Of a stretch of DNA of 64,000 nucleotides, positions 1,127-44,232 are shown piece after piece. The position numbers were made by a program, and so were the translations under genes. The stretch is from contig JBCDIZ010000005.1 of assembly GCA_038748365.1 (NCBI GenBank), positions 36,092 to 100,091 on the forward strand, read 5' to 3'. The notes under the pieces were generated by a model, which had not been told where the DNA came from, searched no databases, and saw nothing but the letters and a program-made list of their open reading frames with translations. Positions within the stretch are counted from its first letter, which is position 1; each line of letters starts with the position of its first letter. The DNA comes from Pseudomonadota bacterium (GTDB taxonomy: Bacteria; Pseudomonadota; Alphaproteobacteria; Sphingomonadales; Sphingomonadaceae).

Positions 1127-2143
1127 ATGCGTGTTTTATTGACAGGGGCGACAGGGCTAGTCGGTGGTGCACTGGCCGGTGCTTTGCTGGATTCAGGTCA
1201 TCACATCGTTGGCGTGCTGCGCGGCGAGGGTCGTACTATGCTTGACATGGATGGGCAGGACCGGGCGGCTGAAATCACGCCTTTGCAGGGAGATGTTACC
1301 CAACCTAGTTTCGGTCTTACTGGACTTCCAGATGATATTGATTTGGTTATCCATTGTGCCGCGACCACTGACTTTACCGCCAGCGATGCGGTTTATGAGA
1401 CGGTGAATATTGGCGGTGCGCGCAATGCGGTCGCGCTGGCGCAGCAGTTAGACGCGGCTTTGCTGCATGTTTCCACGGCGTATGTTTGTGGTCGGGCCGA
1501 TGGTCCGGTTTCAGAGATGCCAGCCAATCCTGAAGGCGATTTCACCAATGGCTATGAGCGTTCCAAGGCCATCGCTGAAAGCCACGTGATGCAGGCGCGC
1601 AAACAGGGCCTGGTCGCCGCGATTGCTCGGCCGAGCATCATTGTCGGGCGCTTGTCAGATGGCGCTATTCCGCGACAGGATGATTTCTATCATCTGTTTC
1701 GCCTGTTCGGTTCTCCGCTTTTGCAGCGCGTCCCGGCAATTGATGGCGCGGCTTTCGCGATTGTTCCGCTCGATCATGTGGTTTCCGGCTTGATGGAAAT
1801 GGCCGAAAACATGGCGCAGTTTGATGGCGATGCGGTGCATCTGGTTGCTGATAAACCTTTTCCGCTTGCCGATATGCTGGATATTGTCGCGGAATATGCG
1901 CGCGCGTCTCCGGCGGAGATCGTTCATCCTGATACGTACGATGTTGACCAACTCGACCGCCGCAGCCTGATGGTGCATCGCAAGGTTGGGGCGCAATTTT
2001 TTGAGTATTTTGCCCGGGTGCCCCTGTTTGAAAGCCGTGTTCTTGCAGAGAAGGCCGGGATTATTGCACCGCATATCGATAAAGCAGCGCTGCGGCGGAT
2101 GGTGGACTATTGCCATCGCACGGGGTTTTTGGATTGGCGCTGA
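1127..2143 (+). CDS. Extended SDR / NAD_binding_4 (male-sterility-like) oxidoreductase
   Basis: TGATGLVG Rossmann motif, HCAA, HVSTAYV, YERSK catalytic motif, RPSIIVG. ATG at 1127 preferred over the TTG at 1100. Confidence 0.8.
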   Translation: MRVLLTGATGLVGGALAGALLDSGHHIVGVLRGEGRTMLDMDGQDRAAEITPLQGDVTQPSFGLTGLPDDIDLVIHCAATTDFTASDAVYETVNIGGARNAVALAQQLDAALLHVSTAYVCGRADGPVSEMPANPEGDFTNGYERSKAIAESHVMQARKQGLVAAIARPSIIVGRLSDGAIPRQDDFYHLFRLFGSPLLQRVPAIDGAAFAIVPLDHVVSGLMEMAENMAQFDGDAVHLVADKPFPLADMLDIVAEYARASPAEIVHPDTYDVDQLDRRSLMVHRKVGAQFFEYFARVPLFESRVLAEKAGIIAPHIDKAALRRMVDYCHRTGFLDWR

Positions 2144-40528: not shown

Positions 40529-41392
40529 TCAGGCTGCCAGCAATGTGTCCAGCATAGCAACAAGCTCTTGCTGTGTCTTCGGGTTTGCGGCGAGGGCGGG
40601 TATCGTCTTTTGCTTGCGGTTGGCGACATAAATTCCGCTGCGTCCATCAAAGGCTAGTGCATCGGCGCTGTCCACGACTTTTTGTGCCTGCTTGTCCGCC
40701 GGGCTGAATAGAAACGGTGCCAGCCATGCCAGTATCTTTGGCATTCCCGAAGTGTTGTTGGTCGTCATCGGGGTTTTGGTCGCGCCGGGATCGATGGCGC
40801 GGATCAGAATATTGTCCGACTGTAAATCCTCGGCAAGGGCGGCGGACAAAGCGGTTACCGCCAATTTGGTCTGGGCATAGGTGGTCATAAGACCGCCGAC
40901 AATGTCCGGATTGGCGAGATTTTCCAGGTCGAGCTTCTTGGTTGAATCTATCACACCTGATGAAAGGTTGACGATCATCGCCGCGGGCTCACCCGTTGGC
41001 CGCGCCATCTTTGCACGCAGGCCCTTGATCAGCTGATAGGGTGCCAAGGTGTTTACGGCGAATTGGGACTCATAGCCCTGTGCGCTGAGCACCTTTTCCG
41101 CAGTCAGGATGCCGGAATTGTTATACAGCGCGTCTATTCTGCCGGGGAGCGCAACGATGCTGGCGGCAGCAGCAGTGATCTGCGCTATATCCATCAAATC
41201 GGCTGTGACCAGTTCGATGGTTAATTCCGGATGCGCGGCCAATATCTCCGAACGCTGGGCGTTGGCTTTTGCTTCGGAGCGATTGACCAAAATCATCGCA
41301 TCACCGCGCTTGGCAAGTATCTTCACAATTTCGCTGCCTATTCCCCCGGTAGACCCTGTGATGACGGTCCAGTTTGCATTGGTCTGTGTCAT
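40529..41392 (-). CDS. Short-chain dehydrogenase/reductase
   Basis: TGSTGGIG, NNSG, NLSS, YAQTK. Confidence 0.88.
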   Translation of the reverse strand: MTQTNANWTVITGSTGGIGSEIVKILAKRGDAMILVNRSEAKANAQRSEILAAHPELTIELVTADLMDIAQITAAAASIVALPGRIDALYNNSGILTAEKVLSAQGYESQFAVNTLAPYQLIKGLRAKMARPTGEPAAMIVNLSSGVIDSTKKLDLENLANPDIVGGLMTTYAQTKLAVTALSAALAEDLQSDNILIRAIDPGATKTPMTTNNTSGMPKILAWLAPFLFSPADKQAQKVVDSADALAFDGRSGIYVANRKQKTIPALAANPKTQQELVAMLDTLLAA

Positions 41393-41468
41393 TTGTTAAT
41401 TTCCATTGAATGTTTCATGATGAATATACTTATAGTGTATATATTCACGATATCAAAGCGAAATAGCC

Positions 41469-41888
41469 ATGCTTTCTCCGGCTGATACAATTTGCCAGTT
41501 TATCCCACCCTTTTTACGGTTTTTGCGCGATATTCTGGCCGAACTGAATATGTCTCCAGCGCGGTTTCAGATTCTGCAGGCCCTAAAACAGGGCGGGGCG
41601 CTTTCGATGGTGGAGGTTGCGGACCGTCTTTCGGTGACCAAGCGCAATATAACAACACTGGTCGATGGCCTGGAAAAGGAGGGTCTGGCGGTTCGTCGCC
41701 CGCACCCGACCGACAGACGCTCGACGCTTGTGGAACTGACCAGTGCAGGCGAGGCGCTGTTTACCAAAGCGGCGGCGCTTCAAAAGGAGCATCTTGAAGA
41801 GCTATTGGCCAATTTGGAGCCATCCCGGCAAAAGGATATGGCTCAAGCCCTTACAGATCTTACCAATACGCTCATGACAAAAGCATAA
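41469..41888 (+). CDS. MarR family regulator (divergent from SDR)
   Basis: TTLVDGLEKEGL, HPTDRRS winged-helix motifs. Confidence 0.88.
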   Translation: MLSPADTICQFIPPFLRFLRDILAELNMSPARFQILQALKQGGALSMVEVADRLSVTKRNITTLVDGLEKEGLAVRRPHPTDRRSTLVELTSAGEALFTKAAALQKEHLEELLANLEPSRQKDMAQALTDLTNTLMTKA

Positions 41889-41993: not shown

Positions 41994-42017
41994 TTGACGA
42001 ATGTTACAAGATAACAT
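41994..42017 (+). promoter_or_regulatory. Promoter -35 (TTGACG) followed by a Zur/Fur-like palindrome
   Basis: TTGACG at 41994-41999. ATGTTAC-AAG-ATAACAT at 42001-42017 is a 7-3-7 palindrome with one mismatch. Confidence 0.5.
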
Positions 42018-42142
42018 AGCCGGACGTGATCATATAGTTTCTGTCCTAACGGCCGTTCTTCGACCTGTTCATTTGCAATGATCAAGGATTACCCCTCGGA
42101 AACTGAAAGCCATATTCGACCCATCAGGACAAAGCAGAAACC

Positions 42143-43210
42143 ATGGACACATACCCTGTTGTTATTATTGGCGCTGGACCGGCCGGAATCGGCATTGGGG
42201 CGCTGCTTTCACAATGTGCGGTACCGGCGCTGATATTGGAACGCGGCCGTATCGGAGAAAGCATGAAGCGCTGGCCGAAGGAAACGCGTTTTATCTCGCC
42301 ATCCTTTACCGGCAACTTTTTTGGTGCGGTTGATCTGAATGCGATTACGCCCGACAGCTCGCCCGCCTTCGGGATGCAGACAGAGCATCCATCGGGCGTG
42401 CAATATATGGACTATCTTGAAGATGTCGCCGATATCCACAAGCTGGATATTGAAGAGGGCGTCGAGGTTCTCGACTTTGAGGTCCAGGATAATGGCATGA
42501 TACTGCTCACCACAAGCGAGGGCGATGTGCAATGCCATGCGCTGATCTGGGCCGGGGGAGAATTTCAATATAAGAAAACCATACCGCACACGATACGCGT
42601 CGGCGAATCCTACAAGGCTCTGCCCCAAGGGCATCATGTCATTATCGGCGGCGCGGAAAGCGGCATGGAGACGGCATATAATCTGGTGAAAAACGGCTCT
42701 ACGGTAAGTGTCGTCGATCCGTCAGCGCCCTGGGCCACACGGGTTAGCGATTCCAGCTATGGCCTCAGCCCATTCACATTTTCGCGTGTGCGCTTTCTGG
42801 AAAAGAGCGAAAAAGCAGAGTTTATTCCGGAAGCTGCTGAAGAGATCACCGACAAAACGGTGCGGACGCAAAGCCGTGTTCTCAACCTTGAGCATCCGGC
42901 GATCGACGCCACCGGCTTTGACATACAGCAAAGCTTGGCCGGAAAGCTGTTCGACTTCAAAGATGGCCATCCCGCTTTGACCGAACATGATGAGAGCACG
43001 ATCCACAAAAATGTCTATCTCGTTGGCCCTAATGTTCAGCACGACAAGGCGATATTCTGCTTCATCTACAAATATCGCCAGCGCTTTGCTGTGATTGTGA
43101 ACGAGATGCTGCGCCGCTGGGAAACGCAGAGTCCGATGATTGCCGACTATGCCGCCAAGGGCTTTTTCCTCGATGATCTGAGCTGTTGCGACGGGGAATG
43201 CGAATGCTGA
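42143..43210 (+). CDS. NAD(P)/FAD-dependent oxidoreductase with C-terminal CCxxxCxC
   Basis: IIGAGPAGIG, EHPSG..Y, WAGGEF, IIGGAESG, FCFIYKYRQRF, tail DDLSCCDGECEC. Confidence 0.85.
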   Translation: MDTYPVVIIGAGPAGIGIGALLSQCAVPALILERGRIGESMKRWPKETRFISPSFTGNFFGAVDLNAITPDSSPAFGMQTEHPSGVQYMDYLEDVADIHKLDIEEGVEVLDFEVQDNGMILLTTSEGDVQCHALIWAGGEFQYKKTIPHTIRVGESYKALPQGHHVIIGGAESGMETAYNLVKNGSTVSVVDPSAPWATRVSDSSYGLSPFTFSRVRFLEKSEKAEFIPEAAEEITDKTVRTQSRVLNLEHPAIDATGFDIQQSLAGKLFDFKDGHPALTEHDESTIHKNVYLVGPNVQHDKAIFCFIYKYRQRFAVIVNEMLRRWETQSPMIADYAAKGFFLDDLSCCDGECEC

Positions 43211-44232
43211 GCGGGGCATTGCAAAAGGCGGCCGATTTCATGTTCGGCTCGGGTACGGCCTTTGTGCTGATCGGCGCTATAATCGGGGGTTCGCTTATCG
43301 GAATCGCGCTGCCCGGGGCAGGCGACATGCTCTCCGGCCAGATTGATTATACCATCTTGCTGCTGGTCTTCCTGTTGCTGTTTGAAGTGCGGGTGCAGAA
43401 TGTGCTGTCCAGCCTCAACCGCATACCGTTTCTCGCTGCTACCCTGATTGCCAATTTTATCATCATCCCGGCGCTCGGTTTTGGCCTTGCCTCGGCTTTT
43501 ATGTTCGCGCATCCGCTGTTTTTTATCGGCCTTGTTATCTATTTCATGGCGCCGTGCACCGACTGGTTTTTAGGCTTCACCCGGCTGGCAAAGGGCAACA
43601 CGGCTTTGGGCGCGGCGCTTTTGCCGATCAATATGATCGTCCAGCTTCTGCTCTATCCGGTCTATCTGCACCTATTCGGCATAGACGCGATAGAAACCGG
43701 CGCAGGCGATATCGCGCAAACGCTGTGGCAATGGTTTCTGGTTCCGCTTCTCGCGGCACTGATCCTGCGCTTTGTTGCGGAACGGATCTTGCGCGAAGAT
43801 CAAATGCAATTCGTGCAAAATCTGGTGGCGCTGATTGTTCCGCTTTTATTGGCGCTTCTCGTTGGGCAGATATTTGCTGCCAATATTGGCACCTTAATCT
43901 CCAATATCGCGATTTTCCCGCTGATCCTCTGTGCCATCTTTCTGTTCTTTGTCCTGACTTTCTTGCTAAGCGAAGCGATCGCGAAAATCATGAAGCTGAG
44001 CTATGAAGACCGCGTATTGATGACAATGACCACCGCAGCACGCAATGCGCCGCTCATGCTGGCTGTCACCATGGTGGTCATTCCTGACCAGCCGGTTGTT
44101 TATGCCGCGATCATTATCGGCATGCTGGTCGAGTTTCCGCATCTGGTGGCTTTGAAAGTGATTCTGGAACGCCGCCGTGCTTTGGGTGAAGAAGGGGTGA
44201 CGGAGCCACATAGGAATCCTCTGGCCAGATAA
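43204..44232 (+). CDS. Acr3/SBF (BART superfamily) transporter
   Basis: About 10 TM helices, APCTDW..FT.LAKGN, ARNAPL, GMLVEFP. ATG 43204 overlaps the upstream stop. Confidence 0.8.
   Translation: MLSGALQKAADFMFGSGTAFVLIGAIIGGSLIGIALPGAGDMLSGQIDYTILLLVFLLLFEVRVQNVLSSLNRIPFLAATLIANFIIIPALGFGLASAFMFAHPLFFIGLVIYFMAPCTDWFLGFTRLAKGNTALGAALLPINMIVQLLLYPVYLHLFGIDAIETGAGDIAQTLWQWFLVPLLAALILRFVAERILREDQMQFVQNLVALIVPLLLALLVGQIFAANIGTLISNIAIFPLILCAIFLFFVLTFLLSEAIAKIMKLSYEDRVLMTMTTAARNAPLMLAVTMVVIPDQPVVYAAIIIGMLVEFPHLVALKVILERRRALGEEGVTEPHRNPLAR

Follow-up and report, generated by a model that had tools for sequence, protein, structure and literature searches.

Two overlapping genes, one for a flavoprotein with a cysteine-rich tail and one for an Acr3-like permease, were found in a 64,000-nucleotide stretch of a Sphingomonadaceae genome (GenBank assembly GCA_038748365.1, contig JBCDIZ010000005.1, positions 36,092 to 100,091; here called the window). 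The pair is conserved in many phyla, its relatives lie among zinc-regulon genes, and a Zur-type box precedes it in the window. We consider it fairly probable that the two genes form a Zur-repressed zinc-starvation module for zinc uptake or trafficking. The features on which this reading depends are as follows (window positions).

42001 to 42017, no strand: Zur-box-like palindrome ATGTTA-caaga-TAACAT (ATGTTAcaagaTAACAT), 126 to 142 nt upstream of the flavoprotein ATG
42143 to 43210, plus strand: NAD(P)H/FAD two-dinucleotide-fold flavoprotein, 355 amino acids, full-length match to PF13738 (Pyr_redox_3)
43172 to 43207, plus strand: Cys-rich C-terminal tail, the last 12 residues (DDLSCCDGECEC), defined by sequence and homologue conservation
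43204 to 43210, plus strand: start/stop overlap ATGCTGA, the flavoprotein stop lying over the permease ATG
43204 to 44232, plus strand: BART-superfamily (Acr3/BASS-fold) permease, 342 amino acids, about 10 transmembrane segments, match to PF01758

The neighborhoods of related genes point to zinc. Among 80 related flavoprotein loci, in which markers were counted within 6 kb, 41 contained zinc markers (COG0523, Fur/Zur-family, ZnuA/B, or paralogues of HisI or carbonic anhydrase), with COG0523 GTPases at 22 loci and Fur-family regulators scoring best as Zur at 19. ZnuA/B/C and paralogues of HisI and gamma-carbonic anhydrase were among the recurrent neighbors, as were FolE and cysteinyl-tRNA synthetase (CysRS) paralogues, M19 dipeptidase, and MerC-like proteins, the last recurring in Balneolaceae and Fulvivirga loci. 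A Zur-like gene lies directly upstream of the pair in three close relatives (loci L002, L004, and L008). Orthologues in other lineages are embedded in clusters of Zur, COG0523, and zinc importer genes. A plasmid island of Klebsiella has the order carbonic anhydrase-folE2-dksA-COG0523-zur-cysS-flavoprotein-FeoB-like-zigA-hisI-zur, and a homologue of the flavoprotein is present on approximately 500 Klebsiella plasmids. In one example of the island (L086, K. pneumoniae plasmid NZ_CP132714.1, positions 120255 to 135289), the flavoprotein and a FeoB-like "nucleoside recognition domain" protein are placed between two Zur-like repressor genes. On a Paracoccus plasmid the order is aztABCD-zur-COG0523-flavoprotein-cysS.

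Homologues of the permease with about 50% identity were found in similar company, in Shimia as flavoprotein-permease-ZinT and in Achromobacter as TonB-dependent receptor/COG0523-FolE2-L36-flavoprotein-permease, where the flavoprotein tail reads CCEGCEC. A third such homologue, in Brucella intermedia, stands in the order COG0523-116-aa protein-permease. Because the flavoprotein is replaced there by COG0523 and the 116-aa protein, this gene order suggests that the permease can work without the enzyme. The 116-aa protein (L092:4658-5008), in the flavoprotein's place, is signal-peptide-like. Another small, conserved protein, of 125 amino acids, containing Cys and lacking a Pfam match, is encoded near the flavoprotein in Balneolaceae, Spirochaetales, and Gracilibacteria (L018:7553-7930, L019:5483-5860, L043, and L071).

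The regulatory logic of these clusters, and neighbors such as COG0523/ZigA, FolE2, DksA2, HisI, CysRS, carbonic anhydrase, and L36, are those of the Zur-regulated COG0523 clusters described in the searched sections of Haas et al. 2009 (PMC2770081). Those sections flag the cluster of pLVPK as Zur-regulated and contain no discussion of the flavoprotein or the permeases. The first half of a metallostasis review likewise does not mention the flavoprotein, a search for FeoB-like genes linked to Zur returned no paper, and the literature searched yielded no biochemical study of the flavoprotein and no function assigned to its family or to the permease subfamily. In Staphylococcus aureus, calprotectin induces an operon of three genes, NWMN_2481 to NWMN_2483 (COG0523, a hypothetical protein, and an FAD oxidoreductase), by 43- to 152-fold, the highest value being that of NWMN_2483, an enzyme that the authors call uncharacterized (PMC5480029). 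NWMN_2483 is likely an orthologue within the flavoprotein family.

The box upstream of the pair is a predicted Zur-type operator. Its 15-nt core, GTTACAAGATAACAT, is identical at 13 of 15 positions to GTTACGATATAACAT, the site at Paracoccus denitrificans znuA that was bound by Zur in an electrophoretic mobility shift assay (PMC5387054, Table 7). The Paracoccus-type pattern GTWAYNNNATAACAT had two matches in the genome versus 0.63 expected, and the chance of a match in a given 254-nt spacer is about 5e-5. Perfect ATGTTA-N5-TAACAT sites number two in the 3.14-Mb genome, one of them being that at 42001 to 42017. The other (C7:78814-78830; L081:5815-5831) was not taken as an operator, as it lies inside rimI; this GNAT gene belongs to a tsaB-rimI-mucR-fur stretch and the box is about 1 kb upstream of the Fur gene. 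When the pattern was relaxed to ATGTKA-N5-TMACAT, one more perfect site appeared, a complete palindrome lying 38 nt ahead of a ZigA-type COG0523 gene (589 bits); a box with one mismatch precedes hisI by 13 nt. The regions upstream of the pair in the close loci could not be aligned (34% column identity), and boxes were therefore sought by pattern; Zur-type boxes were found in only some loci, upstream in L007, L011, and G309. The box also overlaps a candidate promoter.

42011 to 42038, plus strand: promoter-like site ATAACA-16 nt-TATAGT, from a consensus scan, 9 of 12 matches

The -35 hexamer of this site is the right half of the Zur-type box. The site is a consensus match only, and such sites are no more numerous in the region than in shuffled sequence.

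The pair itself behaves as a unit. A GGGGA Shine-Dalgarno-like stretch precedes the ATGCTGA overlap, an arrangement read as predicted translational coupling of the flavoprotein and the permease. In all 12 close loci with enough sequence, the permease directly followed the flavoprotein, and in nine of the 12 the permease alignment opened 4 nt short of where the flavoprotein alignment ended, as it does here. Nine distant loci also had the pair, in Flavobacteriales, Balneolaceae, Cyclobacteriaceae, Roseivirgaceae, Marinamargulisbacteria, Peribacteria, and a Methanosarcinales archaeon. A tail of the [FY]LxDLSCCxxECxC type ended 117 of the 120 homologues listed, including those from Bacteroidota, Spirochaetota, and eukaryote transcriptomes, and this conservation together with the recurrence of the overlapping pair is far beyond chance. 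The flavoprotein was detected in 3 of 401 sampled alphaproteobacterial genomes, each time with the permease directly downstream. Because so few of the sampled genomes carry it, the module appears patchy and is probably mobile.

Across the 80 surveyed loci, the downstream partner was the Acr3-like permease in 21 and a FeoB-like protein with GTPase and Gate domains (550 aa) in 28, including Bacillaceae; the two never occurred together. In a maximum-likelihood tree of 77 flavoproteins, all 22 that are paired with the Acr3-like permease fell on one side of a split with 99/93 support, and partner type changed four times on the tree versus a mean of 19.4 when labels were shuffled. Labels are common to related sequences, a pattern that indicates co-inheritance of the partners rather than independent events. 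The flavoproteins of L014 (Flavobacteriales) and L055 (Methanosarcinales archaeon), both followed by the Acr3-like permease, were sisters (99/96), which suggests that the pair has moved between bacteria and archaea. The FeoB gate motif GFGCNVP was present in 21 of 29 FeoB-like partners. Both partner families keep an intramembrane Cys, in PCTDW of the Acr3-like and GFGCNVP of the FeoB-like proteins, and this gives the idea that the flavoprotein services thiols a rationale common to both. The earlier note on this DNA had listed the overlapping Cys-tailed oxidoreductase and Acr3-like gene, the retained membrane Cys and late Glu of the permease, FeoB next to similar oxidoreductases in Firmicutes, and a Zur-like box, and had proposed a reductase-transporter pair that could be checked by co-occurrence. 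All of these points were borne out by the open reading frames, the permease alignment, the loci and tree, and the match to the Zur-bound site with its zinc-regulon neighbors.

Other genes were found behind the flavoprotein as well. In lineages of Bacteroidota and Thermodesulfobacteriota with neither permease, the downstream gene encodes a small membrane protein (80 to 95 aa) of one of two unrelated families without a Pfam match (L016:1541-1825, L022, L025, and L058; L065:7092-7337, L068, and L080). The flavoprotein is also often without an adjacent permease, beside COG0523 and CysRS paralogues. An apparent fusion of the flavoprotein to the FeoB-like protein (1006 aa, haloarchaeal locus L069) was rejected, its N-terminal part being an out-of-frame, Arg-rich read of GC-rich DNA. 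In some close relatives the pair is accompanied by a small protein whose conserved core spans about 70 residues, YEDWKHCIT...TPEYIE...WG..HL...WFE.A (L005:841-1107, L009:1451-1699, L006:760-1035, and L003:8084-8353); it was not found in the present genome.

The flavoprotein scored 232.6 bits against PF13738 (cut-off, 30) and has dinucleotide motifs at residues 10 (GAGPAG) and 169 (GGAESG) and an ATGF motif at 256. The model score, the two GxGxxG-type motifs, and the ATG motif identify a protein with two dinucleotide-binding domains, in which cofactor binding is predicted, and Asp192, with which the second Rossmann strand closes, suggests that NADH is preferred to NADPH. Its family is defined by a loop, RFISPSFTGNFF, by the motifs SDSSYxLSP and FCFIYKYRQRF, the latter with Cys306, and by the C-terminal CCx3CxC tail. 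The loop, both motifs, and three of the four tail Cys are invariant; among 52 diverse sequences, C349, C353, and C355 never varied and C348 nearly so. Apart from the tail, Cys occurs only at positions 25, 131, and 306, and no CxxxxC redox-active pair is present anywhere in the sequence. A scan of 185,579 species genomes placed a relative in at least 532 of them, which extends the family to Bacillota, Cyanobacteriota, Planctomycetota, SAR324, Deinococcota, haloarchaea, and Methanosarcinales; homologues were also found in marine eukaryote transcriptomes, and the Cys tail is kept across bacteria, archaea, and algae.

An AlphaFold2 model of the flavoprotein, built from the 52 sequences, had a confidence score (predicted local distance difference test, pLDDT) of 87, with low confidence at the tip of the tail and in a conserved loop at residues 53 to 60. 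The pLDDT was below 50 for residues 352 to 355, and the tail is therefore probably mobile. A single relative has a solved structure, PDB 3D1C from S. aureus Mu50 (NP_373108.1), a structural genomics entry without a function on which no papers were found. The two proteins align end to end (E value, 5.5e-62), including the tail of 3D1C itself (YLDDYSCCEVSCTC), and 3D1C superimposed on the model with a template-modeling (TM) score of 0.84. They differ in that identity is 34% and "flavin-containing putative monooxygenase" is a putative label, and in that family members in Bacillaceae and other Firmicutes pair with FeoB-like and COG0523 genes, not with the Acr3-like permease. The source of 3D1C is presumably NWMN_2483, judging from locus-tag arithmetic.

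After 3D1C, the nearest folds were those of the bacillithiol disulfide reductase Bdr (YpdA; PDB 7APR and 7A76; TM score, 0.71 to 0.78), then thioredoxin reductase (TrxR)-like ferredoxin reductases, thioredoxin reductases, and IruO. Because these are its nearest folds, the modeled flavoprotein is best likened to a small NAD(P)H-dependent reductase and not to a class-B monooxygenase. It matched the ArsO flavin monooxygenase model weakly, at 30 bits versus a cut-off of 425. Bdr is likewise a two-domain NAD(P)H/FAD reductase of similar size, but identity to it is about 20% and the score against TIGR04018 was 62.1 bits versus a cut-off of 339.9. The catalytic Cys of Bdr lies in the first GxGxxG motif, whereas the GAGPAG of the flavoprotein has no Cys, and the flavoprotein has in addition the Cys4 tail and family-specific loops. 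In MerA, also a flavoprotein, a mobile C-terminal ...LSCC... tail picks up a metal ion and passes it inward, and the vicinal Cys pair near the C terminus is shared. However, MerA-type metal-ion reductases combine such a pair with CxxxxC, which the flavoprotein lacks; it is predicted to belong to another fold subfamily, and zinc, unlike the metal of MerA, is not reducible. A functional precedent, likened by description, may be CzcO (COG2072), a Pyr_redox_3-type flavoprotein that is encoded with and assists the cation diffusion facilitator CzcD in Bacillus subtilis, in an efflux system that is induced by metal excess. One source names a homologue "putative flavoprotein involved in K+ transport."

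The permease is assigned to the BART superfamily, with a predicted SBF fold, by its PF01758 SBF score (54.5 bits versus a cut-off of 24.3) and its topology, with about 10 hydrophobic segments in the hydropathy profile. PDB structures of BASS proteins matched at an E value of 4e-6, and PCTDW...AKGN and TAARNAPL occur at the positions of transmembrane segments 4 and 9. The ATG at 43204 is the start in database gene calls, and homologue alignments begin there at residue 1.

43186, plus strand: alternative permease start TTG, which opens the longest open reading frame
43345 to 43347, plus strand: codon of Asp48 in transmembrane segment 2; Asp is 100% conserved in 118 homologues and in 22 of 22 paired permeases
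43552 to 43566, plus strand: PCTDW motif (Cys118 and Asp120) in the discontinuous transmembrane segment 4, invariant in 22 of 22 paired permeases from seven phyla
44128 to 44142, plus strand: VEFPH motif (Glu310 and His313) in the last transmembrane segment; Glu is invariant and His is present in 20 of 22 paired permeases

Sources label this permease "arsenic resistance protein." It shares with Acr3 the BART fold, the approximately 10 transmembrane segments, and an intramembrane Cys and late Glu: in an alignment with the genuine Acr3 of a family relative (425.5 bits on TIGR00832), Cys118 and Glu310 occupied the columns of the Acr3 Cys and Glu. Yet identity to Acr3 is 25%, the TIGR00832 score was 76.3 bits versus a cut-off of 282.8, and where Acr3 has RCIAM, EVPV, and GNNFEL the permease has PCTDW, EFPH, and ARNAPL. 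Asp48, Asp120, and His313 are all missing from true Acr3, in which the His position is Val. Because the subfamily adds these three residues, the site appears shifted toward a Cys/His/Asp/Glu set typical of zinc, which as judged from the alignment suits Zn(II) better than As(III). The permease is without ars context and has a Zur-regulon context, and for the latter reason it probably imports zinc rather than exporting As(III).

No ZnuA, ZnuB/ABC-3 permease, or ZIP gene and no true Acr3 was found in this genome, which is 99.99% complete and contains two Zur-like genes, on contigs C15 and C16. Given the box scan and these absences, no transporter gene other than that of the permease stands behind a perfect Zur-type box. 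A candidate second zinc-starvation cluster lies outside the window at a contig end (C16:1-7000; L084), with a Zur-like gene (1613 to 2113, minus strand), a 111-aa open reading frame, an ATP-binding cassette (ABC) ATPase, and a MacB-type permease on one strand and DUF1826, COG0523, and a PhoX-like beta-propeller protein on the other. This arrangement may be a Zrg/AztD-like zinc system.

A working model of the module can be proposed. When zinc is plentiful, Zur would repress the pair; when zinc is low, a cytoplasmic NAD(P)H/FAD flavoprotein and a coupled inner-membrane permease of the Acr3/BASS fold would be produced together. The permease would most likely import Zn(II) or a zinc-thiolate complex, and the flavoprotein would most likely serve the metal path from the cytoplasmic side through its mobile Cys4 tail. 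The thiolates of the tail might accept the ion from the permease, or the enzyme might be a reductase that keeps the tail and the Cys of the permease transport site reduced, or both. Chaperones, ZigA for example, would receive the zinc next. Communication between the tail and the flavin is probable, by analogy with the ...LSCC tail of MerA and with TrxR-like ferredoxin reductases, in which a C-terminal extension covers the flavin. A more specific version is put forward tentatively and seems rather unlikely: NAD(P)H would drive thiol/disulfide cycling of the Cys4 tail, which would take up Zn(II) where the Acr3-fold permease, or in other lineages the FeoB-like one, opens to the cytoplasm and would release it to chaperones.

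Several points weigh against the zinc module. Its role in this organism is deduced from sequence. Zn(II) is not redox-active, which leaves the need for a flavoprotein without an established rationale, and Acr3 is an exporter, so that the fold does not give the direction of transport. The second perfect box, within rimI, indicates that some matches are not operators. About half of the 80 loci have no zinc marker within 6 kb, and the presumed identity of the S. aureus gene with 3D1C depends on locus-tag arithmetic. Among relatives, presence of the module was not anticorrelated with ZnuA: two that bear the module have ZnuA, and two family members without it also lack ZnuA, and the pair was accordingly rejected as a ZnuABC replacement. 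It was also rejected as the unique importer, as the C16 cluster of Zur-like, MacB-type ABC, DUF1826, COG0523, and PhoX-like genes may be a second zinc system, so that the pair is not the sole candidate.

Other explanations of the pair were weighed against the zinc module. The flavoprotein might instead carry out redox housekeeping during zinc starvation, reducing disulfides of metal-stripped Cys-rich zinc sites or of a zinc-buffering low-molecular-weight thiol, while the permease moves the thiol, the disulfide, or another organic anion. This is conceivable but not likely: bacillithiol disulfide reductase and TrxR-like enzymes have the most similar folds, the flavoprotein is often found beside COG0523 and CysRS paralogues with no permease next to it, and organic anions are the cargo of BASS relatives. 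However, the permeases that alternate downstream belong to two unrelated families, one of them FeoB-like and hence of a metal-ion transporter type, the invariant Cys/Asp/Glu/His set of the Acr3-like permease looks like a metal site, and the position of the Bdr catalytic Cys reads Ala in GAGPAG. It is less probable, and on balance unlikely, that a substitute metal such as Fe(II), Co(II), Mn(II), or Cd(II) is taken up to refill zinc sites, with the flavoprotein serving as a metal reductase akin to IruO or the ferric reductases, for example on Fe(III) or Co(III) complexes. A redox enzyme would be chemically sensible for Fe or Co, IruO and TrxR-like ferredoxin reductases are among the fold neighbors, and the alternative partner is FeoB-like with its gate motif, but Zur rather than Fur is the best-scoring assignment of the linked regulators, the promoter box matches a Zur site, and the neighbors include the zinc-specific ZinT, Znu/Azt, ZigA, and paralogues of L36 and FolE2. 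Of the Zn or Fe acquisition suggested in the earlier note, the zinc part has thus gained ground and the iron part is the weaker, and its proposal of an enzyme that oxidizes or reduces the metal to be transported cannot hold for Zn(II).

The same note had also considered organoarsenicals, and a module that couples a redox conversion of arsenite, antimonite, or an organoarsenical by the flavoprotein to export by the Acr3-like protein would account for the retained Acr3 Cys and Glu, the weak ArsO match, and the label given to the permease by sources. Such a module is very unlikely. The permease falls far below the acr3 cut-off and has PCTDW rather than RCIAM around the Cys, the promoter box is of the Zur type, and ArsR, ArsC, ArsA, and ArsM were not recurrent in any lineage among the neighbors of about 95 loci, where the recurrent neighbors were all zinc-starvation genes. 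The arsM locus that the note places 40 kb away in the window is not syntenic with the pair. The pair's neighbors in the window, genes for a MarR regulator, a short-chain dehydrogenase/reductase (SDR), and a methyltransferase, raise the least probable of the alternatives, a detoxification unit in which the pair is under MarR control and responds to an organic or thiol-reactive compound. The MarR gene (41469 to 41888, plus strand) is on the same strand 254 nt upstream, and its product weakly matches the zinc-dependent AdcR family (E value, 0.007). In close relatives, though, Zur stands in the place of MarR, and none of the related loci has a counterpart of MarR, the SDR, or the downstream methyltransferase; these three, together with an FG-GAP protein and Ate, were rejected as parts of the module for that reason. 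The MarR gene also has an inverted repeat of its own, TGAATATA-N11-TATATTCA (41421 to 41447), facing the divergent SDR gene (40529 to 41392, minus strand), and this repeat is likely a MarR operator unrelated to the zinc module.

The best reading of the pair is thus a Zur-controlled zinc acquisition or trafficking system of unprecedented parts: the known Zur-controlled importers ZnuABC and ZupT are ABC and ZIP importers, unlike a flavoprotein with a BART or FeoB-like permease. Zinc acquisition limits growth in the sea and in infected hosts, and the flavoprotein family is probably represented in an S. aureus operon that is strongly induced by calprotectin. The pair could mark zinc stress in marine metagenomes. 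If its function were shown, it would be a new component of zinc homeostasis, perhaps with a new transporter class and coupling principle, and the widely spread annotation of the permease as an arsenic resistance protein would be corrected. If redox-coupled import were true, the permease would be the first zinc transporter of the BART superfamily, and the uptake of a metal without redox chemistry of its own would be driven by reducing power, and not solely by ATP or an ion gradient.

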